Assembly: GCA_018062625.1 (NCBI GenBank)
Contig: JAGORV010000006.1
Span: 1-60,413 of the forward strand
Direction of reading: 5' to 3'
Length of the DNA: 60,413 bases
DNA from: Candidatus Woesebacteria bacterium
GTDB taxonomy: Bacteria > Patescibacteriota > Microgenomatia > UBA10105 > UBA927
The first letter of the stretch is position 1. Each line of letters begins with the position of its first letter. Of the stretch, positions 476-42,479 are shown in pieces. The translations under genes and the position numbers were made by a program. The notes below the pieces were generated by a model, which was not told the origin of the DNA, did not search any database, and saw only the letters and a program-made list of their open reading frames with translations.

Positions 476-2215
476 CTATTTCTGTATATGATGACTCTTT
501 TGCGACTCAAACATTTTTTCAATTTCAGCGACTGTTGTTGACTGGGCGGGTCCTTTGTCACCACGTATACGAACTAACCGTGGAAATCGTACGGCAAAAT
601 TAGCTCCATGAGTGGGTGACTTGGTCAGATCATCACCAGCAATCTCCACGACTAGCCGTGGATGCACCCACACATCAGGCACAAATGCCTTATTTACACC
701 TGTGTAGGCTGCTGGCTTTGTAGCACACTTTATTTTCTCAAATTCACTTCTCAAGTCTTTCCATAGCTCATCAGACACACCAGTGCCAATCTTGGTCAAT
801 GTGACAAATTCGTCCTTATGTCGGACACCAACCAAAAATGCCCCTATACCAAACCCACTTCTTTTTCCCTCGCCCACATAGTACCCCATCACGACAACGT
901 CTATGGTATCAGTGAGTTTGCCAGTTTTTCCTTCTTCTTCCTTAAATTTCACCCAAGCAAACCCGCGCCTTCCCGGTTCATAATTACTATCCCATTTTTT
1001 TACCACCACACCCTCCAACCCTTTTGATATTTGCGCTTCATGATAGGATCGAATTTTTTCTGCTGAATCAGTAAGTATTTGTGGAGATATAGCGAATATT
1101 TTATCTGGAGATATTGTTTGTTCTAAAATTTTTCTTCGAGTGGAAAGTGGTGTACTCAATAACTCCTTTCCATTCTTATACAGGATGTCAAAAATAAAAA
1201 ATTTCAATGGCATATCTTTTCGTGTCTGCACTATGTCGTGCTTACGCTTTCGCGTCATAGTTTCCTGAAATGAACTCAGTTTTCCGGAAATCGGATCAAC
1301 GCCTATTGCCTCTCCATCCAAAATAACCTCATCGGCGTGTATCTCCCCCGCAATATCTTGTAACTCAGAAAACATTTCTGTCGTATTTTCCAAATTTCTA
1401 GAAAAACTTCTCGCGCTTCCTGAGGCGCCAAATCCACTTTTTTTATAATGAATCTGAATACGAACACCATCATATTTCGGCTCAACAGCTACCTGACCCA
1501 TCTTTTCGATCATTTCATCCGCCGTTGGTAATCGCTGGCAAAGTGAGGCCAGTATTGGTGCCCCGACGCGCGCATGAATATGAGATAACCCACTCGCCCC
1601 ATGTGCTTTCACTGTTTGTGCTAACAACCCTATGTCAGGGCGAACGTTGTATGCATCCTCAAGTCTCGATCTCAACGACTTATCCCCTGTCACCATCCAC
1701 GAAAGACTATCCAAAATTGTCATATCGGAGAATCCTAATCGAAGTTTATCGAGAGGAATACGCGCTATATATCTCGCACTTTGCGCGTCCACCCGATGTA
1801 ATAAATCGGCGATGCATACAATTTTTTTATCTTGAGAACCGGTTCCCGACATTTGTGTAATAGTGCAAAAAATCTGAAAAACATCAGACACAGAGAGCTG
1901 ACCACCTTTTCCTTTATGCATTCGTTCTGCAGCTATCCCTAGGTCGCCAACATGTTTAAATTCCGCAGTTACTTGCTCAACGGGCACATCATACGCCACG
2001 GCTATCGCACGAATCATAAATTTATCAGCAATCCCAAACTCTATAGCCTCATACAGCGGTGCAACACGCCCCAGAAGTAGATAGCAAATATTCCCAATCT
2101 CATCTGCATGTGCTTTCAAAAAAAGCTCAGACAAAATACCCGTCATAGCATTTCGAGAAGAAGTTTGTTCAAGTTGTTGGAAATACCGGGCTAATTCGGA
2201 GAACAACATAATCAA
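476..2215 (-). CDS. ATP-dependent DNA ligase (DBD + NTase + OB, archaeal/eukaryotic Lig1-like architecture)
   Basis: Motif I EPKYDGVR, ILDGEA, FFIFDIL, EGVVVK, WVKFK, VRFPRLVRIRGDK. Confidence 0.95.
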   Translation of the reverse strand: MIMLFSELARYFQQLEQTSSRNAMTGILSELFLKAHADEIGNICYLLLGRVAPLYEAIEFGIADKFMIRAIAVAYDVPVEQVTAEFKHVGDLGIAAERMHKGKGGQLSVSDVFQIFCTITQMSGTGSQDKKIVCIADLLHRVDAQSARYIARIPLDKLRLGFSDMTILDSLSWMVTGDKSLRSRLEDAYNVRPDIGLLAQTVKAHGASGLSHIHARVGAPILASLCQRLPTADEMIEKMGQVAVEPKYDGVRIQIHYKKSGFGASGSARSFSRNLENTTEMFSELQDIAGEIHADEVILDGEAIGVDPISGKLSSFQETMTRKRKHDIVQTRKDMPLKFFIFDILYKNGKELLSTPLSTRRKILEQTISPDKIFAISPQILTDSAEKIRSYHEAQISKGLEGVVVKKWDSNYEPGRRGFAWVKFKEEEGKTGKLTDTIDVVVMGYYVGEGKRSGFGIGAFLVGVRHKDEFVTLTKIGTGVSDELWKDLRSEFEKIKCATKPAAYTGVNKAFVPDVWVHPRLVVEIAGDDLTKSPTHGANFAVRFPRLVRIRGDKGPAQSTTVAEIEKMFESQKSHHIQK

Positions 2216-2218
2216 AAG

Positions 2219-2404
2219 TTAGACAATGAAGAAAAAATACGCTCCAACAATCAATACAAGGAGTACGATACCAAATCCTAACGCAATCGGCCCATCGGGC
2301 TCAGATTTATTTAGTTTACTTATCCCTTGTGCGATGACTGCCAACGCAAATAGCGTAGGGATCACCATAAGGACATAACTAAACTCCGGTCGATTTAAGT
2401 CCAT
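2219..2404 (-). CDS. Small two-helix membrane protein, unknown function
   Basis: 61 aa, two hydrophobic stretches, fills the gap between fic and the ligase gene. Confidence 0.7.
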   Translation of the reverse strand: MDLNRPEFSYVLMVIPTLFALAVIAQGISKLNKSEPDGPIALGFGIVLLVLIVGAYFFFIV

Positions 2405-2417
2405 AATATAATAAAGA

Positions 2418-3461
2418 TTATGTCTTCAGCACGTATTTTGCTCCCTTTGTTGAACCCTCTTTTTTGACTATACCCTTTTTGAGCAAGTCCTTCAATTCTC
2501 GTAATATCGTATCCTCGCTCACCATCGGAAATAATTCAAAAAAAGTTTTATTTTGCAAAAACCCACTTCCTTGAATAAACTCAACTATTTTTATTTGTCT
2601 CTCAGTCAGTGACATTTGTTGTCCACCAAATGATTTTTTAATTTTTAGATCGGTAGACAACGATTTTACTTTTTCTTTTATTCGATTAAGTTCTATAGCA
2701 AGCCCCTCAATAAAATACTCTATCCAGCGCGTCAAATTACCATTTTCTCGAACTACACTTTGTAGAGAGTCATAATATGCTAATGGTTCTCGATCATAAT
2801 ATTCTTCCAACGAAAAGAAACGTTTAATATCATACCCTTCCATGAACAAAACAAGTGTCGCAACGGCACGCGCTACTCTTCCATTTCCATCCAAAAAAGG
2901 ATGTATACGAACAAGCTCGTAATGGACGATTCCTGCTTTGAGCACCGGATGCAACCCATCAGCCACAGCTTGATTTACCCACATAAGAAAATCTTCTATC
3001 AAAAAACCTACCTCTACAGCTGGTGGAGGGCGAAACGTCACCTCTCCAGTTTGTGCATTTTTCACCACGACTTGCGTTTTACGATATTCCCCCACTAGCT
3101 CATCTGGCAATATTCTATGCGCGATAAGCGAATGGAGATGCTTAATAACCTCCTCAGTAATTTTGTCGCCCTGAAACGCTTCAATAAACTTCAACACGTT
3201 TCTGTAATTTAATACTTCCTGAATATCGCGTTCACGTCCTACTATTTTATGCCCAGCGAGCACCTTCTCGGCTTCAGTGAGAGATAAATCATTTCCCTCG
3301 ATATGCGTTCCATGATGCACGCTTCGCACCATCGCTTCTTCACGAAACTTAGATTCCCACGCGGGTACTAGTGGGCTATTTTCAATCACTTCTCGAGACG
3401 CCTCTATCAAGCCGATTGTTTTGAGAATTTTATTAGTGATGGTAAACTGAGGTTGATACAT
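2418..3461 (-). CDS. Fic-domain protein with C-terminal winged-helix
   Basis: Canonical HPFLDGNGRVAR, N-terminal GTHIEGN, C-terminal EDTILRELKDLLKKGIV; start placed at MYQPQFTIT (3461). Confidence 0.92.
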   Translation of the reverse strand: MYQPQFTITNKILKTIGLIEASREVIENSPLVPAWESKFREEAMVRSVHHGTHIEGNDLSLTEAEKVLAGHKIVGRERDIQEVLNYRNVLKFIEAFQGDKITEEVIKHLHSLIAHRILPDELVGEYRKTQVVVKNAQTGEVTFRPPPAVEVGFLIEDFLMWVNQAVADGLHPVLKAGIVHYELVRIHPFLDGNGRVARAVATLVLFMEGYDIKRFFSLEEYYDREPLAYYDSLQSVVRENGNLTRWIEYFIEGLAIELNRIKEKVKSLSTDLKIKKSFGGQQMSLTERQIKIVEFIQGSGFLQNKTFFELFPMVSEDTILRELKDLLKKGIVKKEGSTKGAKYVLKT

Positions 3462-3501
3462 AGTTATTTTAATTCCCGCATATTTACTGTATAATAAACG
3501 C

Positions 3502-3765
3502 ATGGCAGATAAAAAACAACCAAGCAAATTAATTCATCTTGCTATACTGAAGCAAATGCTCACACTCACTACGAGTGGATTTGGGCTTGTTGCGGCGCTT
3601 GCATGGAATAGTGTCATACAAGAATTTGTTACCACGCAAATCAAACCATTTCTACCTAAAGGAAGCGGTCTATGGTCACTTATCATTTATGCGATCGTGG
3701 TTACGGTACTTGCTGTCTCCATCACAATTTACCTATCACGCGTAATCAAAAAGCTGGAATCATAA
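3502..3765 (+). CDS. Small membrane protein, DUF5654-like
   Basis: FGLVAALAWN signature (recalled), two TM segments, TATAAT 6 nt upstream. Confidence 0.8.
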   Translation: MADKKQPSKLIHLAILKQMLTLTTSGFGLVAALAWNSVIQEFVTTQIKPFLPKGSGLWSLIIYAIVVTVLAVSITIYLSRVIKKLES

Positions 3766-3781
3766 TGTATACTAGAAGCAT

Positions 3782-4264
3782 ATGGATTTAGGTCCCCCAC
3801 CGTATGCGCAATCTACAGATATAGTAACCCAAAATAAACACTTTCCATTTGTCACGCTTGCCCTATCGTTACTCATCACGATACTTGGCATCAGCACCAT
3901 CGTTCTTACCTATCAAAACATACAATTAAAACAGCAGATTGACGCGTTATCACGGTCCAAGCTAGAGCCATCGCCCACAATGGCCCCATCACCCACCCCA
4001 CCACAAATTAGTCCCACAACTGCACAGATGATGTGCGGTGGAATTGCGGGCATACCATGCCCTAGTGGATATGTTTGCCAAATGACCGCAATGTATCCCG
4101 ATGCAAGCGGAACATGTACCAAAAAAGATGCATACACATGCCCCAAAAGTGGGTACGTAGATTGTATGCCAAGTCCAAACGCTGGTATTCGTTATGAGTG
4201 CACGTCTGAAGCAATGAATTGGTATAAATCAAACTGTCCCGATTTTAAGGGCGGCGCGTATTAG
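3782..4264 (+). CDS. Membrane-anchored surface protein with Pro/Thr linker and 8-Cys C-terminal region
   Basis: TM at about aa 22-44, PSPTMAPSPTPP linker, CGGIAGIPCPSGYVC...C and CP...DCMP...C...NCP modules. Confidence 0.75.
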   Translation: MDLGPPPYAQSTDIVTQNKHFPFVTLALSLLITILGISTIVLTYQNIQLKQQIDALSRSKLEPSPTMAPSPTPPQISPTTAQMMCGGIAGIPCPSGYVCQMTAMYPDASGTCTKKDAYTCPKSGYVDCMPSPNAGIRYECTSEAMNWYKSNCPDFKGGAY

Positions 4265-29820: not shown

Positions 29821-31086
29821 TCACGCCTTTGTAGTTTTCGACAATATGGGAAATAATATCATGCAGGACACGGCCAATATTAGTCCTTCCGAGAGTACTG
29901 TTATCCACGCAGACGCCACAGGGCCAAATTGCGGCACAAGCCAAATATTACATCCAATATTTAATAGCATTCCACTTCCATAGATCCACGCTAGATGCCA
30001 TTGACGTTTGTATGTCACCAGCATCCACATAGTCAATGAAGACAAAAAAAAGATTGGCAAAGACAAAACGAGAATACGTAAGTACAAAATGCTTGGTAAA
30101 AAATCGGGTCGTATCAAAACAAAATACGGTGCAAAAAACCACGCAGCGATAAACAGCGCTATTGAACTAACCAGCAGTACACTAGCAGTTTTTTTTACCA
30201 AAGACTTAAATACATCTTGACGCTTATGAGCAACCAACATCATGGGATATACTGCATTCATAAAAAACGTTGGCAACACAAGAATGGTTTCAAATACTTT
30301 ATATGCGAGTCCATAAGTGCCCACTTCCACAGAAGCGCGCGTGAGAGTCAAAACCACACTGTCAGCATGTGCATATATAACGTTGCTAATAAGCGTCAAG
30401 CCCAATGGAACAGAAGCGACAAACAGCTTTCCCATTGAAGAGAAAGAAAAAGTAATAGACAGGGGAGTGATTCGGTTGGCAAACCATAGTGAAATAATCG
30501 CTGTAGTTAAACTCCCACCTAGCAACGCAACTACACCAAGGACTCCTCCTCCAATTTCTATATTACTTACCCAAACCAACCATAAAATTCCGAGCGTAAC
30601 CGCAGAACCAGCAACAACAGCAACCGTAGCGTCTATATATCGCAAATGTTTTTGAAACACTGCATTAGCACTTGTTATTAGCGCTTGAAATATAATGGCG
30701 GGGGAAAACACAATAATTCCAAGCCGTACAAGCGACGTGTATCCTTGTGAGGTGGACTGGGGAAGAAATGCTAAAGCTGCAATAGATATGAACATAAGTC
30801 CAATGCTACCAATTGTCCGAAGACCAAATAACGAGGGGAGTGCTTCTGAATCTGTGCGCTGTAGGTACAATGCGTTTAGCCCGAAGTCTGCGATTAAAAA
30901 AAAGAAACTCACAAACGTTGTGATTTTTACGAAATCACCAAATCCTGATGCCCCAAATTGTCGTGCAATAATAAAACTGAGGATGAATGTTGTTCCTGCC
31001 CCAAAAAATTTTCCAACCAATTGTGCAGACGTATTTATAACCACAACACTTCTGGAACTCCCTTTAGAAAAGATATGCCCAAACAT
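29821..31086 (-). CDS. Wzx/MOP-family polysaccharide flippase
   Basis: About 12 TMs, ADFGL, YAHADSVVL, VGTYGLAYK; start placed at 31086 behind TACAAT-N7. Confidence 0.88.
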   Translation of the reverse strand: MFGHIFSKGSSRSVVVINTSAQLVGKFFGAGTTFILSFIIARQFGASGFGDFVKITTFVSFFFLIADFGLNALYLQRTDSEALPSLFGLRTIGSIGLMFISIAALAFLPQSTSQGYTSLVRLGIIVFSPAIIFQALITSANAVFQKHLRYIDATVAVVAGSAVTLGILWLVWVSNIEIGGGVLGVVALLGGSLTTAIISLWFANRITPLSITFSFSSMGKLFVASVPLGLTLISNVIYAHADSVVLTLTRASVEVGTYGLAYKVFETILVLPTFFMNAVYPMMLVAHKRQDVFKSLVKKTASVLLVSSIALFIAAWFFAPYFVLIRPDFLPSILYLRILVLSLPIFFLSSLTMWMLVTYKRQWHLAWIYGSGMLLNIGCNIWLVPQFGPVASAWITVLSEGLILAVSCMILFPILSKTTKA

Positions 31087-31119
31087 GATGACCATTGTAG
31101 CATGAAAAGTATTGAGGTC

Positions 31120-32397
31120 TTATGAATTCGACGGAAATCGTATAGCTACTGCAGTCAAAGAAATAATTAAACTAAACAGTAATTGCCCTTGCTGCAACGT
31201 AAATAGGTAGTGATCGATCAAACCGAGCATCAATAAAGAAATCATTGATATATACAATGAAGAATAATTATGCTTTCGCTTACGGCTATCATATATAAAC
31301 GATAGGATATAACCCAAAATTATACTTACACCCATAAGTCCAACCTGTGACAAAAGAAGTAAATATATATTATGAACCGGCTGAAGAATATATACCTGTT
31401 GTGATCGCAACGTTGGAGATAAACCAAAAAGAAAATTATTTAATCCTATACCGACGATAGGTGACTGATACCATATTGAAAGCGCCGATTCATTTAACTG
31501 TCTTCTCACTACCACAGACTCGTCTTGAATGGGGGCGACTATAAACCCAGAAATCATAACCAAACATAAGATGCTAATAATACATAATCGAATCTTAGTA
31601 AGCTTGTGTCGAAATATAATTATACTAATCGTACTAAATACGGTTACTACCCATGCGCTTCGACTAAAACTCAACACCAGCGCGATAGCCCCCAAAACTA
31701 TAGCAACCACATACAGGTAATGAGACGTTCGTCGTTTATTATTTTTCATTACTTCCATAAGCATAAGTGGAAGAGTAACTGCCAAAAATCCACCCAACAC
31801 ATTTGGATGTGAAAACGTTGAATATGCCCTCAACTTCAATTCGCAAGAAGAATTAAACAATTGGCAAATAGTAATTCGTGCAATAGCTGGAGTATCTATC
31901 ACAAAAGATCGTTCACCCAAAAACCATAAAGCACCGCCAATCGAACGCTGCAATACATATTGAGAGATACCAATAATGGCAATACCTATAATACCCACCG
32001 CTAAAGGTTTTGTGATGTCAGCCAGTGTAAGGCGTTGTTGGTATACATAACTACACAAGATCACAAGTTCCAATAATTTTATCCATGCAATAAGTGCAAT
32101 TATTCCATTATGCGCAAATATAATATTTATAAAAATAAATATACTTGAACAAAGCGCCATAAAAATAGTTTTACTATTCAGCGATCGAAAGATGAATATA
32201 ATTTTCTTGTAAAGCTTTGTCTCGATTATCCATGTAATTATCAACGCTATAACTAGGATATCGGTAACATATACAGTAGGAGAGAGGTAATCAATTTTAC
32301 GTCCTAGTATAGAAGACCAGTTCGGCCAGAAGTGATAACCAAGTTGTGTCGGAAGAAAAACAACAAGAAGAAATAATAATTTGCGGTGCAAAGTCAT
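31120..32397 (-). CDS. O-antigen ligase/Wzy_C family membrane protein
   Basis: RAYSTFSHPNVLGG, SFSRSAW, GIGLNNF, PVHNIYL; start placed at 32397. Confidence 0.87.
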   Translation of the reverse strand: MTLHRKLLFLLVVFLPTQLGYHFWPNWSSILGRKIDYLSPTVYVTDILVIALIITWIIETKLYKKIIFIFRSLNSKTIFMALCSSIFIFINIIFAHNGIIALIAWIKLLELVILCSYVYQQRLTLADITKPLAVGIIGIAIIGISQYVLQRSIGGALWFLGERSFVIDTPAIARITICQLFNSSCELKLRAYSTFSHPNVLGGFLAVTLPLMLMEVMKNNKRRTSHYLYVVAIVLGAIALVLSFSRSAWVVTVFSTISIIIFRHKLTKIRLCIISILCLVMISGFIVAPIQDESVVVRRQLNESALSIWYQSPIVGIGLNNFLFGLSPTLRSQQVYILQPVHNIYLLLLSQVGLMGVSIILGYILSFIYDSRKRKHNYSSLYISMISLLMLGLIDHYLFTLQQGQLLFSLIISLTAVAIRFPSNS

Positions 32398-32425
32398 TAC
32401 CGCCATTATATCAACGTTGCAAAAA

Positions 32426-34313: not shown

Positions 34314-34451
34314 TTAGACGGTGAGTTTTTTTCGCCCATTTGCGCGACGTCGCTTAAGCACTTTTCTACTTATTTGCGTTTTCATACGACTACGAAAGCC
34401 GTGTGTTCGTGCTCGTTTTTTCTTTTTTGGTTGATACGTTCGTTTTGGCAT
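34314..34451 (-). CDS. rpmH: 50S ribosomal protein L34 (not in ORF track)
   Basis: Manual translation [45 protein letters not shown]. Confidence 0.96.
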
Positions 34452-34493: not shown

Positions 34494-35861
34494 TTATTCT
34501 GCGAGCCTGACTACACACTCTCGAAACTGATTACCGCGATCCGCATAATCTTTAAATAAATTATAGCTTGCAGACGCAGGGGAGAGAAGACAAATTTTTC
34601 CGTTCATCGTATATTTATACGCTAATCGCACAGCCTCTTCCATGGAAGAAACGTCATGTTTTTTTATGGTACATTCTGGATTTGCAGCCAACACTGCCGC
34701 CCAAATTTTGGCCCCCGTATCTGGAAAGAGTAGTAACACATCTATAGGGAACTTGGCTAAATATGTGCCTAAGGCAGTAAAATCTAAATGCCGGTCATAC
34801 CCCCCAGCTATGAGGGTACCCACCTGATCACCAAATGCTGAAAGAGCATGAATAGTTGCCTCAGGAATAGTGGCAAGTGAATCATTATAAAACGTTATAG
34901 CATGGAATGTGCCTATATTTTCTAGACGATGAGGAAGTGGGGTAAATGGATGTATTGCTTCTCCGATAATATGCGGTGCAATACCAAAAAGCTTTGCAAC
35001 CGCGACTGCAGCCATAATGTTTTCTGTGTTTCCCAACAACTGAATATCAGCCATATTCATCACAACTTCGTCTTTTCCAATCTCCTTAGACATAATCGCG
35101 CCATCTTTCACAAAAACAGATGTGCCAGCTGACGATTCAGTGTTATATACAAACTTTTGCGCAGGCGAGTCTATCGCTATTTCTGACACACCAGATGCAG
35201 ACAAATTACAAATAAACGCATCTTGGGGAAATTGAAATCTAGTGATATTGGCTTTTGCGTGTATATACGACTCTATATTTGGATAATAATCCAGATGCTC
35301 TGGTTGGATCGCCAAAAGAACTGCAATCTGTGGGCTATACCGTGCGTCGCTAAGCTGGTGACTAGATAACTCGGCGACAAATACAGTTTTTGATGTTACG
35401 GATTCTATATGATCCAACATCGGCAACCCAATATTACCCACGAGTCGCACGTCAGAAACTGAAGATTTTAATATATGTGCAATCAAGCTTGCGGTCGTGC
35501 TTTTGCCTTTTGTCCCAGTCACACCCACCGTTTGATCACGAAACTGTGACAAAAATATATTTGTGGCACTCGTAACAAATCCACCCAACTTTATATATTC
35601 CACAAGCTCAGGTGTATGTGGTGGAATACCGGGAGAACGTATAACCGTCGAATATTTCGATAACGACGCAAGATATGCAGAACCTGAATAAACCTGCGTA
35701 GACTCCCCAACGATTGGAGCAACTGAGCTAGCATCTGCTATATCCACATGAATCTTAGGATAATGCTCGTGTAGCCATTTATGCGTACTTTGACCTTCTC
35801 GGCTATACCCTAGAATCAACACCTTATCACCGCGTATTTCTGGTAAATCTGTATCGTTCAT
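34494..35861 (-). CDS. murD: MurD-family ligase, probably MurD2 (L-Glu-adding) given the adjacent murL
   Basis: GVTGTKGKSTT, GNIG, ELSSHQL, EHLDYY, FYNDSLAT, GGYDR, LSPASAS. Confidence 0.92.
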   Translation of the reverse strand: MNDTDLPEIRGDKVLILGYSREGQSTHKWLHEHYPKIHVDIADASSVAPIVGESTQVYSGSAYLASLSKYSTVIRSPGIPPHTPELVEYIKLGGFVTSATNIFLSQFRDQTVGVTGTKGKSTTASLIAHILKSSVSDVRLVGNIGLPMLDHIESVTSKTVFVAELSSHQLSDARYSPQIAVLLAIQPEHLDYYPNIESYIHAKANITRFQFPQDAFICNLSASGVSEIAIDSPAQKFVYNTESSAGTSVFVKDGAIMSKEIGKDEVVMNMADIQLLGNTENIMAAVAVAKLFGIAPHIIGEAIHPFTPLPHRLENIGTFHAITFYNDSLATIPEATIHALSAFGDQVGTLIAGGYDRHLDFTALGTYLAKFPIDVLLLFPDTGAKIWAAVLAANPECTIKKHDVSSMEEAVRLAYKYTMNGKICLLSPASASYNLFKDYADRGNQFRECVVRLAE

Positions 35862-37276
35862 ATACTATGCTCCACATTTGCCCACGCTGCTCGTAAAAGC
35901 GAAAGGTGCTCCTCTGTCACGTTATAGGTGTCGCCCCAATGATCCATCACAGACTCTTTCAGTCTACGCACGTCAGTTTCAGATTTGCCCAAATCGCTTT
36001 TTATCAAAAGTAATCCCTCTGGAACTTCTCGGCCTTCTTTTTTATACTTTTCGACACACAACAATAGCGATAAGGATGCTTCATCTCGTGTTCCAACACA
36101 TTCAAACGGTTTAACTTGTGTTAGCCCCACCAACTCACGAATAAAGCGAACTATTGTGGGCTGTGCAAATAAATCCATTCCGAAACTTACTATCATTTGC
36201 TCGTGAGACAAATACGGATAGAGGACTAGATACGTAAATGCGCACTTGGCACATGCACCACACCATGTGTTTGTTTTACTCCCAACATTGCAACTACGAA
36301 ACGTGATAAAAAAATCTGGATGTTTTGAAAAAATCATACTAATTTGTATGTCGTTGAGAGGACGAAGCATGCTAAAGTAGCCAATATCTGCCGTTAAGAA
36401 CTTCGCACAGTACGATCGGAACAATTCTTCAAAACGAAAACTTTTAGAATATTGATGATTTATCTCTAGACCTCTATACACCACGTTTCCCTCGTCAGCA
36501 CTTCGTTCATTTGAAACAATCACATGTGATTTGCCATATAGGCTTGCGACAAGAACCCCCAAAAAAGCCAGATACGCAGAAAATGGGGTATGACCATTCA
36601 TATATCCCTGTTTATTAAGCGCTAAAAGCTGTGGGTCTATTATACGTTTAACCACGATTGGACGGGGTAAACCCGCGGCAACTATATTTGCAAGACTAGC
36701 TTGAGTAGGATTTACTACCATTGTAGAAAAGGGTAGTCCGGAACCAGATAATAGAGCAAGCGTCACGGCCGTATCTTTGCCACCACTTGCGAGCACTAGG
36801 TCTCCACTGTACGAATCTGATCGTATAGATTCAACTCCTTTAAAATCATGCTTTGGACTATCAATACGCTCTATAGTAGAATTCGTATTTTGTACTGAAT
36901 TGGTGATATGAAAAAAATTTGATTGTGTAAAGTCGATTTGATTTTGATAATAAAACTCTCCCAATCCATGCATAAAAAGATCGTTCCAAAATCGAATCTG
37001 CTCGAGAGAAACATCCCCTGCTTCCACTACTATCTCGGCAGGACATGCTACCTTCCAGTAACTTATCATTTCTATCAATCCTACATGGAGTGCAAAAATA
37101 CCAAGCGCCTGCTCATCTATCTTGCCCATAAACGGAATCTGTACCTCTGGGCGAAACACTATGTCAGGCGCAAGTACAAATTCGAATCGAATTATCAATG
37201 CTTCTGTTGTTTGTATAACTTTGTACGATTTGTACGTGAGTCGTGAATGTTTATTTCGTAGTTCTTGCAAGTTCAT
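35858..37276 (-). CDS. murL: Probable UDP-MurNAc-L-Ala-L-Glu epimerase MurL
   Basis: PP-loop SGGKDT, NGHTPFS, SNERSA, NHQYSKS, WCGACAKC, KPFECVG; ATGA overlap with murD; start placed at MNLQEL. Confidence 0.8.
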   Translation of the reverse strand: MNLQELRNKHSRLTYKSYKVIQTTEALIIRFEFVLAPDIVFRPEVQIPFMGKIDEQALGIFALHVGLIEMISYWKVACPAEIVVEAGDVSLEQIRFWNDLFMHGLGEFYYQNQIDFTQSNFFHITNSVQNTNSTIERIDSPKHDFKGVESIRSDSYSGDLVLASGGKDTAVTLALLSGSGLPFSTMVVNPTQASLANIVAAGLPRPIVVKRIIDPQLLALNKQGYMNGHTPFSAYLAFLGVLVASLYGKSHVIVSNERSADEGNVVYRGLEINHQYSKSFRFEELFRSYCAKFLTADIGYFSMLRPLNDIQISMIFSKHPDFFITFRSCNVGSKTNTWCGACAKCAFTYLVLYPYLSHEQMIVSFGMDLFAQPTIVRFIRELVGLTQVKPFECVGTRDEASLSLLLCVEKYKKEGREVPEGLLLIKSDLGKSETDVRRLKESVMDHWGDTYNVTEEHLSLLRAAWANVEHSI

Positions 37277-37327
37277 ACTAAGGTATTGTAGCAAAGTTAA
37301 CGGGGTAATGACCAAAAAACACGTGCA

Positions 37328-38914
37328 TTATGGAGCGACTTCTTGCCAAATGACGGGAAGCTCTTTCATCTCATCTGGCATGGTAACCAAAAGCTTTGGA
37401 TTATACACAAATAATTCTGGGGGATAGAGAGTGTTACCACCATACAAGTCCAGATCTCGCTGAAGCAAGAAATTTCCTGATATAAACATCCCCTTACCTA
37501 CAAATTTCGCGGCTCCAATAGAAGTAGATAGCCCAGTCTGAAATGTTCCTGATGGAGAAAGCACATAAATACCCTCAACTACCGGCGCGGTTGCCGAAGC
37601 AGTCGTGCCCACCGATGAACTGACACTTAAGTATTGTCCACCGACGATAAACGCCACAAAACCGGAACCTGTTATATTTACCTGACCACCGAGCGTGAGA
37701 TTTCCAGTAACGATAAATACTATGTTTTCACCGTCTCCCACAACCCAATCGCCAGATGTCGTCATATCTCCATCTATATAGTAGGGGGTAGGGCGAGATT
37801 CTGGTTGCTCAACCGCTGCTAAATTGATAAAAGATGTGTTATCTGTAGTCGTTGGACTACCATAACGGCGATAAAAATAGTCATAATAATTCACTGTCGA
37901 TCGAGTTTCGTTCACCAACCAATTGTTTGGCGATGACACGCGATCTGCCCCTTGTTCGACACTACCTCCATCAAAATCATACGTAGTGCCATAGGTTACA
38001 ACCCCAGGAGATCCACCTGTGCCATTGGTGCTAAAAACGCGGGGGGTGACGTCTGGAATAAACGATTTTAACGAACCAGAGGCATAGACATCTCCGCCAT
38101 TGGTCTGCACCCAGCTAGTTCCCCACATGTATCCTATATCCCATTGAAGTATCTCTCCATCACCAAGGACGGTAGAAAAACCGGTACTAGAATTACCATT
38201 GCTATTTGTCCAGCAACTTGCTGCAAGCATCCAATTGCTACCAAGCGGTTGAGGATCTATGGTATATGACCCTCCAGCAATAGAAGAGAACGAAACGTAG
38301 TTTGCTCCTGACTGAGTCAGTGGTGTTGGCTGGCTTGCACTAGACTGAGTGAATCCAATAGTGGTGCCATCGATCTCTGCGTTTCCGGTCGAAATTGCAC
38401 GCACATCAGCACACGTCACATCGGTAGGCTGTATTTCAACTGCACGAGCAAGAATAGTGCCTACTGGTGCTGGAGTTGCCGTCGGTTCAACGACCACGGG
38501 CTCTGTAGGATTGGGAGGATTTGGAGTTCCATTTCCCACGGGGTTTCCACAACCCGCATCACAACACTGTGTCTGCCCGAGTTGCGCGTTGTTGTTACAG
38601 ACGCGAAATTGCCAACCATTAGTACAACTGCCCCATGCACCCCAACCCGATGTACAAGTCGCTTGAAACGCTGAACAGGTCATGCCACAGCGTCCGGTAT
38701 TATTATTACAAAATGGTGTACAAGTCGATCCAGCGGGACAAAGACCACTAGTGCAAACTGTTCCACAAGTTCCAGAACTACAAAGTGGCATGGTGGGGAA
38801 AGGCGACACGGCGGGTGTATTTGTTACATACTGTGCATTAACACTGGGTATATTTACAAAACTAAAAAATACTATAAACAACAACGAAAAAAATACACGA
38901 TAAACAACCCTCAT
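37328..38914 (-). CDS. Secreted/surface protein with a 14-Cys N-terminal region and a beta-rich C-terminal domain
   Basis: Signal peptide ending ...SVNA, WGAWGSC, Pro/Thr linker, C-terminal VEGIYV...VYNPKLL. Confidence 0.8.
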   Translation of the reverse strand: MRVVYRVFFSLLFIVFFSFVNIPSVNAQYVTNTPAVSPFPTMPLCSSGTCGTVCTSGLCPAGSTCTPFCNNNTGRCGMTCSAFQATCTSGWGAWGSCTNGWQFRVCNNNAQLGQTQCCDAGCGNPVGNGTPNPPNPTEPVVVEPTATPAPVGTILARAVEIQPTDVTCADVRAISTGNAEIDGTTIGFTQSSASQPTPLTQSGANYVSFSSIAGGSYTIDPQPLGSNWMLAASCWTNSNGNSSTGFSTVLGDGEILQWDIGYMWGTSWVQTNGGDVYASGSLKSFIPDVTPRVFSTNGTGGSPGVVTYGTTYDFDGGSVEQGADRVSSPNNWLVNETRSTVNYYDYFYRRYGSPTTTDNTSFINLAAVEQPESRPTPYYIDGDMTTSGDWVVGDGENIVFIVTGNLTLGGQVNITGSGFVAFIVGGQYLSVSSSVGTTASATAPVVEGIYVLSPSGTFQTGLSTSIGAAKFVGKGMFISGNFLLQRDLDLYGGNTLYPPELFVYNPKLLVTMPDEMKELPVIWQEVAP

Positions 38915-38953: not shown

Positions 38954-41152
38954 TCAACGCTGAACTATCAAAGAGGGGAATAAAATAGTCTGAATATCAG
39001 CTGGGAAGAATCCATTTACGTATTTTGGATCATCTTGCCCAATACCCACAACAATATTTGGATTTGTTGCACTCAAATTAGGAAAATGAAAACCAAACGT
39101 ATAATTATACGGATTTCCATCGTGTCCAGGATTTGGAAGATTACCCATATCGTTTCCTTTTAGTTTCAAAAGCTTTGCAAGTGACGGCTGGGATGCTCCA
39201 AAAGTGATCAGTCCATTTGTATCATTAAAAAATCCGTCCTCAATCTTAAATATCGGAAGAATCTCTAATTTTGAGTTCATATTTGCAGCGTTTTCCCACA
39301 ACTTGTCAAACGTCGTGCGATTTGTAGCGTCTCCCATGATCTCTTCACCACTGGCGACCAACATAATTTTCCACTCGTCTGGGTTTGGGCTATGTGGAAG
39401 CAATGGATCTAACCATTTCGTTGGGAAAAATTGAAATTTTGTACCATCTGGCAATACGGTATAATACCATGCATCTAGCGCTTGAATTGGACTGTTGTCT
39501 TTAGTTAAGCCATCCCACGTAACTGCAGAGGAATTTTCAAGATATCCAAACTTCGTAGACGTTCCGGTGTTTACATTCACATCAAGATATTGGAATCCCA
39601 TGGTTAACCCTGCCGAAACCTTCCATCGCTCGATCGCAGCGTTAGAAAATGGCTGATTTAGCTCTTCATGCAATAAAATATCTCGAATTAACACGTCTCG
39701 ATACTCAAGGGGTACAAATACAGGAGCATTTATGTCACTACTTACTTCAAATTGTTTAAACCAACCCTTATGTTCTTGACTCCAAAGGAGTGTTTGACCA
39801 TCAATTGTACTCATGGTTGGAGTTTTACCAAATTTATTTTTATTCGCCAAGTCTTCTGTAAGACCAGATGGATCAATATTCACTTTTTCCGTTACAAGAT
39901 TTTGATTTGCGTCCCAATAGGTTATTTGTGTAGTAAACCCACCAGCTTCCGCTGTTATAGATGCTTCAAGCCCAGCATGCTTTTTGAGTGCCGCAGTAAT
40001 TTCTGCGCTTAACTCAAGAGAGTCAATGCTAAATTTTGCCACCTCAACGGGTTTTGCTGGATTTTGTTCAAACCCATGTTCTGCTCCAGGCACAAATAAT
40101 TGCGATGGGGTGGTTTCAGAAGGTTTTTGGATACCCCATACAGGATAGTCACCAAAGTATCCACCCACCAAATCAGTGTATACCACTCCAGCAGGTAGTG
40201 CTACCCACGTATATGCAGGATTTTCTGTGGCGGTAAAGTCAAACCACTCAGCGTTTGGATGATACGAAAAGTTTTCTTCTCCAGCGGCAATCACTGCCAC
40301 TTGTGTGACCCCAGCCTCTACGCGTGATAGAAGTACAAAATTCCGATCAAATGTCTTATTCCAAAAGACCTGTGCTGATTGTTCTCCCTCTACCTTCCCT
40401 TGAATTGCCTCTATGTTTTCGGCGTACGCAACAACCGCATACTCAGGAAGACCAAGCGGATTTGAAGCATCTGCAATCTGCGCCTCTGTGGCACCATGTG
40501 TAAACGCCACTCCTCCTATCGATACATCTTTATAGTCAGGATGACTTCCTATGATATCTGAAGGCGCAACTGGCGTTTCTGTCTGAAACCCAGGAGGGGG
40601 AGTGCTTGTGGCTGTTTCTACAGTTGTTGTGGCTGGAGCCGCTTGTGTAATTTCCGCAGGAATTGAAGTAACTTCAGCAGCTGGCGTTGCAATTGCTGTT
40701 TGACAACCATTTATAATAGGCGCCTGTAACAAAAGCCATGAAGATATAGCTGCTTTATTTTTTGATCTTGCAGCCATAGCACCCAGAGCTAAATCGCCCA
40801 TGATTCCCAGTCCTGCAGCTATAGCCATGGCTGGAGACATTGGTATTGGTAATTTATCTGGAGCAGGTGTGTAAACTGGCGTCTCACCTTGAGAACGAGG
40901 AGTAAATGCGACGTATGCAGTCTCATTGATTGGGACTCGATGTGCTGCATGCTTAAATACATCAGCACGAATTTTTACAGTTCTTGCGCCCATATCAACC
41001 CCAACAGGTTCTTGTTGCCACTGTTTCCAGTTGGCAAAATATGTGGGGTCACTTCTATCAATAGAAAAGGAAATTGGGGCTCTACTTGCGTCGTAGCTTG
41101 CAAGCTTTGTGGCATCAAAAGGCTTTACGTCTCGCTCAACAAATAGTGCCAT
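38954..41152 (-). CDS. Large hypothetical surface protein with an internal hydrophobic anchor or lipobox-like site
   Basis: 732 aa; AMAIAAGLGIMG...LLLQAPIINGC followed by a Thr/Ala/Pro linker. Confidence 0.75.
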   Translation of the reverse strand: MALFVERDVKPFDATKLASYDASRAPISFSIDRSDPTYFANWKQWQQEPVGVDMGARTVKIRADVFKHAAHRVPINETAYVAFTPRSQGETPVYTPAPDKLPIPMSPAMAIAAGLGIMGDLALGAMAARSKNKAAISSWLLLQAPIINGCQTAIATPAAEVTSIPAEITQAAPATTTVETATSTPPPGFQTETPVAPSDIIGSHPDYKDVSIGGVAFTHGATEAQIADASNPLGLPEYAVVAYAENIEAIQGKVEGEQSAQVFWNKTFDRNFVLLSRVEAGVTQVAVIAAGEENFSYHPNAEWFDFTATENPAYTWVALPAGVVYTDLVGGYFGDYPVWGIQKPSETTPSQLFVPGAEHGFEQNPAKPVEVAKFSIDSLELSAEITAALKKHAGLEASITAEAGGFTTQITYWDANQNLVTEKVNIDPSGLTEDLANKNKFGKTPTMSTIDGQTLLWSQEHKGWFKQFEVSSDINAPVFVPLEYRDVLIRDILLHEELNQPFSNAAIERWKVSAGLTMGFQYLDVNVNTGTSTKFGYLENSSAVTWDGLTKDNSPIQALDAWYYTVLPDGTKFQFFPTKWLDPLLPHSPNPDEWKIMLVASGEEIMGDATNRTTFDKLWENAANMNSKLEILPIFKIEDGFFNDTNGLITFGASQPSLAKLLKLKGNDMGNLPNPGHDGNPYNYTFGFHFPNLSATNPNIVVGIGQDDPKYVNGFFPADIQTILFPSLIVQR

Positions 41153-41855: not shown

Positions 41856-42479
41856 TTACACTGCACTCTTAGTCGAACGAGTGCGTGAAATTTCCGCTCG
41901 CAGCAACAAAAACAAAAAATATACTGATCGACACGCAAGCATCATGTCTTTTCGAGTGGATTTATGAGCCACATAATCCACATCACTTCTCATCCATGCA
42001 TCAAAATCTTCATGATATCTGCCAGAAAGAATTGCGGGGGAAATAATGCCAGGAAGTGCATTATGACGAACCCGCATCCACGGTGCGAGCTTTCGAGACT
42101 CACTCTCTGGAAGTGGTCGCGGTCCTATAAATGCCATGTCGCCACGGAGCACATTCCATATCTGTGGTAGCTCATCAAGACCAGTATGACTCAAAAATTT
42201 ACCTAAGCGTGTAAATCGTGGATCGTTTGGTATTTTAAAAACAGGACCATCGGATATATTTCTTGATTTATACTTTGATTGTAGCTTGTCAGCGTTCACT
42301 ATCATCGTGCGAAATTTATACATCACAAATGGCCTACCATCCTTACCAATGCGTCGTTGCATAAAAAATATTGGAAAACCACAAAACACAAACACCAACA
42401 GGCCGATTATCACCTGTAAGGGAAGGGTGAAGACAAATATACAAATCACTAAAATCTTATAAATCACATTCATAATCAA
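41856..42479 (-). CDS. Initiating sugar-phosphate transferase (Bac_transf, small PGT)
   Basis: FFMQRRIGKDGRPFVMYKFRTM, LDELPQIWNVLRGDMAFIGPRP. Confidence 0.93.
   Translation of the reverse strand: MIMNVIYKILVICIFVFTLPLQVIIGLLVFVFCGFPIFFMQRRIGKDGRPFVMYKFRTMIVNADKLQSKYKSRNISDGPVFKIPNDPRFTRLGKFLSHTGLDELPQIWNVLRGDMAFIGPRPLPESESRKLAPWMRVRHNALPGIISPAILSGRYHEDFDAWMRSDVDYVAHKSTRKDMMLACRSVYFLFLLLRAEISRTRSTKSAV

Follow-up and report, generated by a model that had tools for sequence, protein, structure and literature searches.

A gene pair predicted to supply peptidoglycan D-glutamate through a MurL/MurD2 bypass in a member of Candidatus Woesebacteria

In contig JAGORV010000006.1 of a Candidatus Woesebacteria bacterium (assembly GCA_018062625.1), whose 60,413 nucleotides are the window analysed here, the interval 34494–37276 consists of two co-oriented, overlapping open reading frames (ORFs) on the minus strand. 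These very likely represent the MurD2/MurL bypass that provides peptidoglycan with its D-glutamate (we put the probability at about 85%), with enzyme activities that are predicted from sequence. By this route, a MurD-type ligase would attach L-glutamate to the growing precursor, and an ATP-driven enzyme would then flip the L-Glu to D-Glu. The pathway is known from Xanthomonas oryzae, and orthologues from Micromonospora and Salinispora have been assayed as well; its published range is limited to some Xanthomonadales, a few Alphaproteobacteria and rare actinomycetes (PMC8788868); in addition, “low-similarity orthologues” of MurL have been noted in a fungus, cyanobacteria and an amoeba (PMC5808125). 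The substrate and stereochemistry that we assign to both window enzymes are carried over by analogy from the Xanthomonas, Micromonospora and Salinispora proteins. An earlier sequence-only reading of this interval had proposed that the organism makes D-Glu peptidoglycan without the glutamate racemase MurI. Its background on Xanthomonas and actinomycetes is correct (PMC8788868), and the proposal itself is supported by the MurL match, by a Glu/Arg residue pair in the ligase, by the position of that ligase in a clade of MurL-linked MurDs and by the absence of MurI and of a D-amino-acid aminotransferase.

The upstream gene encodes a MurL homologue. The sole NCBIfam match of its product is NF041275 (MurL_Xanthmoales; E = 1.8e-66, 224.5 bits, model positions 64–391 of 447), and a six-frame scan of the genome with this hidden Markov model (HMM) gave the same result as the protein alone. 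In a Pfam set that was searched without PF26298 and PF26299, nothing matched at E ≤ 0.01, QueC (PF06508) and ATP_bind_3 (PF01171) included. PF26298 and PF26299 are the MurL domains, and both occur in the precomputed annotation of all 120 homologues listed, from 97% down to 46% identity. Further, the window MurL shows homology along its length to Patescibacteria MurLs with scores of up to 456 bits over model positions 5–443, and it is ~33% identical to those Patescibacteria MurLs that most resemble the model. At least 5202 public homologues were found at E ≤ 1e-10 among 8000 candidates scored; most are named “hypothetical protein” and come from Patescibacteria and Microgenomates, one JGI/IMG entry already carries the name MurL epimerase, and at least 595 species representatives encode a relative.

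The sequence-only reading had picked out a PP-loop, a cysteine cluster and the motifs GHTPFS, NERSA and NHQYSKS, all of which are present in the 472-aa protein (Table 1). In an alignment of 67 homologues, 33–80% identical to the window MurL, every residue that is invariant over the set is also found in the window protein. Because the motifs hold residues invariant across this alignment, they read as family signatures rather than chance resemblances; the conserved core motifs NGHTPFS, NERSA and NHQYSKS together span 36440..36598 (−). A sequence search of the PDB with the window MurL returned no solved relative, only noise at E ~0.7. We built an AlphaFold2 model from the 67-sequence alignment (predicted local distance difference test score, 94.2; predicted template modelling score, 0.93). 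Its best Foldseek matches in the PDB are QatC (E = 8e-7), QueC 3BL5 (E = 7e-4; template modelling score 0.64 over the 195-residue target), Cap9, argininosuccinate synthetases and MnmA, which belong to the PP-loop ATP pyrophosphatases, enzymes that adenylate their substrates. This high-confidence model predicts that the core of MurL adopts a QueC-like PP-loop fold. The four-Cys cluster, whose spacing we take to be that of the QueC zinc site, is probably a QueC-like structural metal site, likewise for zinc. The predicted fold would fit the published chemistry of MurL, in which the reaction uses one ATP, yields AMP and proceeds from L to D only; the authors of that work proposed adenylation of the Glu α-carboxylate and noted no recognisable domain in the enzyme (PMC8788868, PMC5808125). 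The sequence-only reading had set its MurL assignment against membership among QueC/TtcA-like enzymes. By sequence, the protein matches NF041275 and no QueC or TtcA family; by predicted fold, its core is QueC-like, a likeness that does not refute the MurL assignment.

The downstream ORF encodes a MurD ligase (TIGR01087, 334 bits versus a cut-off of 212) with the three Mur-ligase domains PF21799, PF08245 and PF02875 (N-terminal, middle and C-terminal, respectively). Its best solved relative is the MurD 3LK7, and it is the sole MurD match in the genome. Four differences have been described between Escherichia coli MurD and X. oryzae MurD2, namely D182/E197, K348/R358, A414/P433 and L416/F435; when both E197D and R358K are introduced into X. 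oryzae MurD2, its preference changes completely from L-Glu to D-Glu, whereas the differences at A414 and L416 had no effect on specificity in mutagenesis (PMC8788868). We aligned the window ligase with E. coli MurD (literature numbering equal to the alignment position minus 1) and found the MurD2 residues, Glu and Arg, at the D182 and K348 positions. We then compared two sets of sequences, one of 93 MurDs whose genes adjoin murL or are fused to it, from Patescibacteria, Bacteroidota, Bacillota and others, and one of 40 Patescibacteria MurDs from MurL-free genomes, half of them from MurI-positive genomes and half from genomes that have neither MurI nor MurL. Arg occupies the K348 position in 89 of the 93 MurL-linked proteins and Lys in 40/40 of the others, the 20 from genomes with neither gene included, and the Glu+Arg pair occurs in 81/93 versus 0/40. 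At the A414 position the MurL-linked proteins have Ala (51), Pro (26) or Ser (13), and at the L416 position Tyr (54), as in the window MurD, or Phe (37). Phylogeny gives the same division: a split with 99% support in the Shimodaira–Hasegawa-like approximate likelihood ratio test separates 31 MurL-linked MurDs, that of the window among them, from 45 canonical Patescibacteria MurDs and E. coli MurD, and a FastTree of 134 MurD rows agrees with it. Thus, in a tree anchored by canonical Patescibacteria MurDs and the E. coli enzyme, a check that the earlier reading had proposed, the window MurD falls in the clade of MurL-linked MurDs and carries their Glu/Arg pair.

Four MurL-linked MurDs, L141 (in genome G010), L154 (G291), L153 (G218) and L147 (G134), have the canonical Asp/Lys and lie among the canonical MurDs in the tree. 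The first three stand beside a divergent MurL-like partner in the order MurD then MurL; L147 has a strong MurL on the opposite strand, and its congeners use MurI. These four may form a different subfamily or represent an intermediate state.

The genome itself (G000) offers no evident source of free D-Glu. It has no match to glutamate racemase (TIGR00067) at E ≤ 1, only a 10.7-bit noise match to the Asp/Glu racemase family (PF01177) and, in a profile search, no class-IV (D-amino-acid) aminotransferase (PF01063), in keeping with what the earlier reading had anticipated. The genome does encode MurC, MurE, MurF, MraY, MurG, FtsW, Ddl, penicillin-binding proteins, FtsA and FtsZ. In its division and cell wall (dcw) cluster (contig C30:3689-6705), mraY is followed directly by ftsW and murG, and the usual slot of murD is empty.

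The same exclusion of MurI is seen across the phylum. Among 401 genomes sampled evenly from it, where we called MurL at E < 1e-50 and MurI above its cut-off, MurL occurs in 55 genomes (~33 families), MurI in 125 and both in none (Fisher p = 2e-10); put otherwise, MurI is found in 0/55 MurL-positive versus 125/346 MurL-free genomes. Nine of the MurL-positive genomes have only weak racemase-superfamily matches, with E between ~1e-12 and 1e-6. At least 12 families (f7, f8, f22, f34, f48, f58, f64, f89 and f115 among them) hold the MurL and MurI states in different genomes, and four genera (g57, g61, g91 and g141) hold both states, never in one genome, so that the MurL/MurI exclusion must have arisen repeatedly. 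In the sister family of the window genome, 2/6 genomes have MurI. Beyond this sample, 49 of 50 further MurL-positive genomes, taken from GTDB representatives, are without MurI, and many of these are of 2–4.5 Mb and labelled Bacteroidales or Lachnospiraceae.

MurL–MurD2 pairs at 35–41% identity are found in genomes of 2–4.5 Mb labelled Bacteroidales, Lentimicrobiaceae, Lachnospiraceae, Ruminococcaceae and Bulleidia (loci L047-L095; genomes G426-G449). The sole MurL-positive genome found with a bona fide MurI (228 bits) is G410 (locus L025), of 2.5 Mb and labelled Actinomycetota, which may represent a transitional state or a chimeric bin.

The two genes also travel together. Among 113 MurL loci from many lineages, 100 have a MurD-type gene in the fetched flank; it lies downstream within 60 nt in 74 and within 700 nt in 14, upstream in 5, and is fused in 3. 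Adjacency or fusion of MurL with MurD is conserved over Patescibacteria, Bacteroidota and Bacillota. In the window, the earlier reading's ATGA overlap between the two genes is real, its ORF boundaries are exact, and a GGAG sits 8 nt 5′ of the murD ATG. One fusion, at L012 (G058; 1498-4020), was confirmed with HMMs, which place MurL at residues 4–404 and MurD at residues 432–833, and ~10 of the 55 MurL matches in the phylum sample lie in frames of 812–939 aa. Single-polypeptide MurL–MurD fusions are seen in other Patescibacteria at L012:1498-4020, L139:2107-4605 (G183) and L036:2447-4768.

Several observations weigh against our reading and limit how far it can be pressed. First, the window MurL scores far below the equivalog cut-off of NF041275, which is 700 bits, and ~63 positions at the start and ~56 at the end of the model are left unaligned. 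From these two facts it follows that the kinship to the assayed enzymes is distant, and the Microgenomates-type MurL is best described as a subfamily distantly related to them. The low score is not counted against homology because NF041275 takes its name from Xanthomonadales and was tuned to that group; among the 55 Patescibacteria homologues the best has 456 bits and none reaches 700, and failure at this cut-off limits automatic naming and is no argument against MurL homology. Second, the residues of the ligase are less telling singly than as a pair. The MurD of Streptococcus mutans, which uses D-Glu, also has Arg at the K348 position (PMC8788868), Glu stands at the D182 position in 15/40 canonical Patescibacteria MurDs, and neither residue is diagnostic by itself. 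At the A414 position, moreover, the window MurD has Ala and not the Pro of MurD2. Third, the Arg/Lys split is largely the signature of one clade, and the counts are for that reason not independent events. Fourth, the tie to the characterised MurL and MurD2 runs through an HMM and through a residue mapping taken from a review. None of the best 80 loci in a scan of genome contigs was from Xanthomonadales, and no other MurL was present in 350 genomes sampled from the phylum of G411, a 4.5-Mb metagenome-assembled genome labelled “Proteobacteria,” so that phylum is not the Xanthomonadales one. Fifth, both MurI and MurL are missing from at least 94 of 313 MurD-positive genomes of the phylum, and lack of MurI alone is consequently no proof of the MurL route; the D-Glu of these genomes could come from an aminotransferase, another racemase or the host. 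Finally, the window genome, 1.07 Mb in 70 contigs, is 88% complete, and searches by tblastn with E. coli queries found no murA, murB or alr in it. Since murA is present in 12/12 other genomes of the genus, the assembly evidently has gaps.

Of the alternatives, the one that survives best, improbable as we consider it, is that the PP-loop protein adenylates the α-carboxylate of the stem-peptide Glu for some other modification, such as iso-glutamine amidation (cf. MurT/GatD and the carboxylate-to-amide reaction of QueC), and that an ordinary D-Glu MurD is fed by the host or by an unrecognised racemase. The QueC-like core would suit such a role, as QueC-type enzymes perform amide or nitrile chemistry, and so would the modest score against the family model of assayed MurL, but the homology along its length to MurLs that fill almost the whole of that model argues for the same family. 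Likewise, the many Patescibacteria genomes that run a canonical-type MurD with neither MurI nor MurL imply that the phylum has another source of D-Glu, and host dependence is thought to be typical of Patescibacteria; yet this explanation accounts neither for the strict exclusion between MurL and MurI nor for a separate MurD clade with the L-Glu-determining Glu/Arg, when the MurDs of MurL-free genomes keep Lys. Nor does any glutaminase or GatD-like partner adjoin the window MurL.

A second alternative, which we regard as very unlikely, is the canonical route, with murI or a D-amino-acid aminotransferase hidden in the unassembled ~12% of the genome and the MurL-like gene redundant or serving another role. 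As the case of murA illustrates, real genes are missing from this assembly. However, the 12 congeners, which are 84–100% complete, have no MurI above cut-off and no Aminotran_4, the genome G288, 100% complete, has MurL and MurD2 without MurI, and none of the MurL-positive genomes in the phylum sample has MurI. On these genus-level and phylum-level data, we rejected incompleteness as the cause of the missing murI. The least likely alternative of all, that the upstream gene is QueC, TtcA or another tRNA- or queuosine-related PP-loop enzyme beside murD by chance, could draw on the PP-loop, the C-x9-C-x2-C-x2-C cluster and the similarity in fold to QueC 3BL5, but it is set against the MurL model as the only family match, a length about twice that of QueC, additional domains at both termini, and the conserved association with MurD in three phyla, and membership of these families was rejected for want of a match.

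Under the MurD2/MurL reading, then, the pair would work as follows. After the ligase has attached L-Glu, MurL would bind the product, and its QueC-like PP-loop would adenylate the α-carboxylate of the terminal L-Glu with ATP, releasing pyrophosphate at this step and AMP later. Activation of the α-carboxylate would make the proton on Cα acidic, and Cys393, His229, His274 and Lys278 are candidates for the acid/base residues or for a transient thioester; of these, Cys393, the fifth invariant cysteine, may be the acid/base or thioester residue of the epimerisation. Free D-Glu would never be required, which would explain a genome without glutamate racemase and D-amino-acid aminotransferase. The two activities would be kept stoichiometric by translational coupling and, in relatives, by outright fusion. 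In the system of MurI and canonical MurD, by comparison, a cofactor-independent two-Cys racemase supplies free D-Glu at the outset, whereas in the MurL route inversion is proposed to come after ligation and to cost one extra ATP; as described above, the two systems are mutually exclusive in the 401 genomes of the phylum sample.

X. oryzae MurL and the window MurL fall under the same family HMM, are ~450–470 aa long, and lie each directly upstream of, and co-oriented with, a MurD-type ligase (the XOO_1319/XOO_1320 arrangement); both genomes are without MurI and D-amino-acid aminotransferase; and the ATP-to-AMP stoichiometry published for the former would fit the PP-loop fold modelled for the latter. 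The differences, as judged through the HMM, lie in the score (224 versus the 700-bit Xanthomonadales cut-off), the phylum and the ~1-Mb genome. The ligases share a three-domain MurD architecture, a MurL partner (translationally coupled in the window) and the Glu (D182/E197) and Arg (K348/R358) residues, and both are aromatic at the L416 position, where the window MurD has Tyr and MurD2 has Phe435. They differ at A414/P433 (Ala versus Pro), the position without effect on specificity in mutagenesis. QueC (7-cyano-7-deazaguanine synthase; Bacillus subtilis 3BL5) and the QueC-like anti-phage proteins QatC and Cap9 match the modelled MurL best in structure, and all would share a carboxylate-adenylating PP-loop core followed by a four-Cys motif of nearly equal spacing. 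MurL differs from QueC in matching no QueC sequence family, in its doubled length and extra terminal domains and in its fifth invariant Cys, and its genomic partner is a Mur ligase, whereas those of QueC, QatC and Cap9 are queuosine or defence genes.

We searched about 8.4 million open papers and preprints and found none that links MurL or MurD2 to Patescibacteria or the Candidate Phyla Radiation. The earlier reading knew of no description of the route in Patescibacteria, and the open papers searched likewise contain none. Public resources already tag such proteins implicitly, through PF26298/PF26299 and the one JGI “MurL epimerase” name. What is described here is, in short, a known pathway in a lineage for which the open papers searched contain no report of it.

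If our assignment is right, the MurL/MurD2 pair explains how a host-dependent bacterium of ~1 Mb without glutamate racemase could make a normal peptidoglycan stem peptide, and metabolic reconstructions that score such genomes as lacking D-Glu synthesis would be corrected. Nor is the route rare: it is present in ~14% of the sampled Patescibacteria species, always in place of MurI, and in many genomes of Bacteroidota and Bacillota. It has been proposed as a narrow-spectrum drug target, and so wide a distribution weakens the published argument for a pathogen-specific, narrow-spectrum antibiotic target. MurL, described as having no known domains (PMC8788868, PMC5808125), is placed by the structural model in a QueC-like PP-loop fold, which makes the PP-loop, the four-Cys site and Cys393 testable. 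More broadly, we lean, by a small margin over even odds, toward the view that MurL/MurD2 is a mobile cassette of two genes, or sometimes one, that has repeatedly and reciprocally replaced MurI and canonical MurD, within single Patescibacteria genera and as far as Bacteroidota and Lachnospiraceae of the gut and rumen. In that case, epimerisation after ligation would be a major and not a marginal route to peptidoglycan D-Glu, and MurL a QueC-like Zn/PP-loop adenylating enzyme that uses its fifth invariant Cys for inversion.

Table 1. Coordinates of the gene pair, its predicted functional residues and motifs, and associated sequence features in the window
Feature	Position	Strand	Remarks
murL homologue ORF	35858..37276	−	472 aa counted from ATG; NF041275, AlphaFold2 model, Foldseek
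MurD ORF, predicted MurD2 type	34494..35861	−	455 aa; TIGR01087, MurL-linked clade
ATGA overlap	35858..35861	−	murL stop (TGA) and murD2 start (ATG) share 4 bases; predicted translational coupling
PP-loop SGGKDT, residues 164–169 of MurL	36770..36787	−	ATP α–β pyrophosphatase motif; G166, K167, D168 invariant in 67 homologues
NGHTPFS, residues 227–233 of MurL	36578..36598	−	N227, G228, H229, P231 invariant in 67 homologues
NERSA, residues 256–260 of MurL	36497..36511	−	E257 and S259 nearly invariant
NHQYSKS, residues 273–279 of MurL	36440..36460	−	N273, H274, Q275, S277, K278 invariant in 67 homologues
Four-Cys cluster C329-x9-C339-x2-C342-x2-C345 of MurL	36242..36292	−	All four Cys invariant in 67 homologues
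KPFECVGT of MurL, with fifth invariant Cys, C393	36089..36112	−	K389, P390, F391, C393 invariant in 67 sequences
Glu188 codon of MurD (QPEHLD)	35298..35300	−	Aligns with E. coli MurD Asp182 and X. oryzae MurD2 Glu197; mapping from PMC8788868
Arg357 codon of MurD (GGYDRHLDF)	34791..34793	−	Aligns with E. coli MurD Lys348 and X. oryzae MurD2 Arg358; mapping from PMC8788868
Promoter-like site TGGTCA-18 nt-TACAAT with TG	37285..37314	−	Ends 9 nt before murL ATG; weak evidence

The start of murL deserves a brief comment. An in-frame TTG lies upstream at 37315, 13 codons before the ATG at 37276, and the N-termini of homologues align with the latter and not with the TTG; the ATG is favoured because the homologues begin there. 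The promoter-like site before murL is only suggestive of a separate bicistronic unit, as the region holds 10 such sites against a shuffled expectation of 8.8, which is not above chance, and the counts from promoter and terminator scans alike are at chance level.

The neighbourhood of the pair includes other genes. Immediately downstream of murD2 is an rpmH-rnpA-yidC-khpB cluster, the first member of which, a 45-aa ORF at 34314-34451 (−), looks like ribosomal protein L34 (rpmH). Directly upstream of murL are two large minus-strand ORFs, 37328-38914 (528 aa) and 38954-41152 (732 aa), that have no Pfam match; the former combines an N-terminus resembling a signal peptide with a Cys-rich stretch and a Pro/Thr linker and may be a surface protein. 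Farther out, polysaccharide genes lie on either side of the locus, at 29821-32406 and 41856-42479 (−), and encode a Wzx-type flippase (Polysacc_synt), a Wzy_C/O-antigen-ligase-like protein and a Bac_transf sugar transferase.

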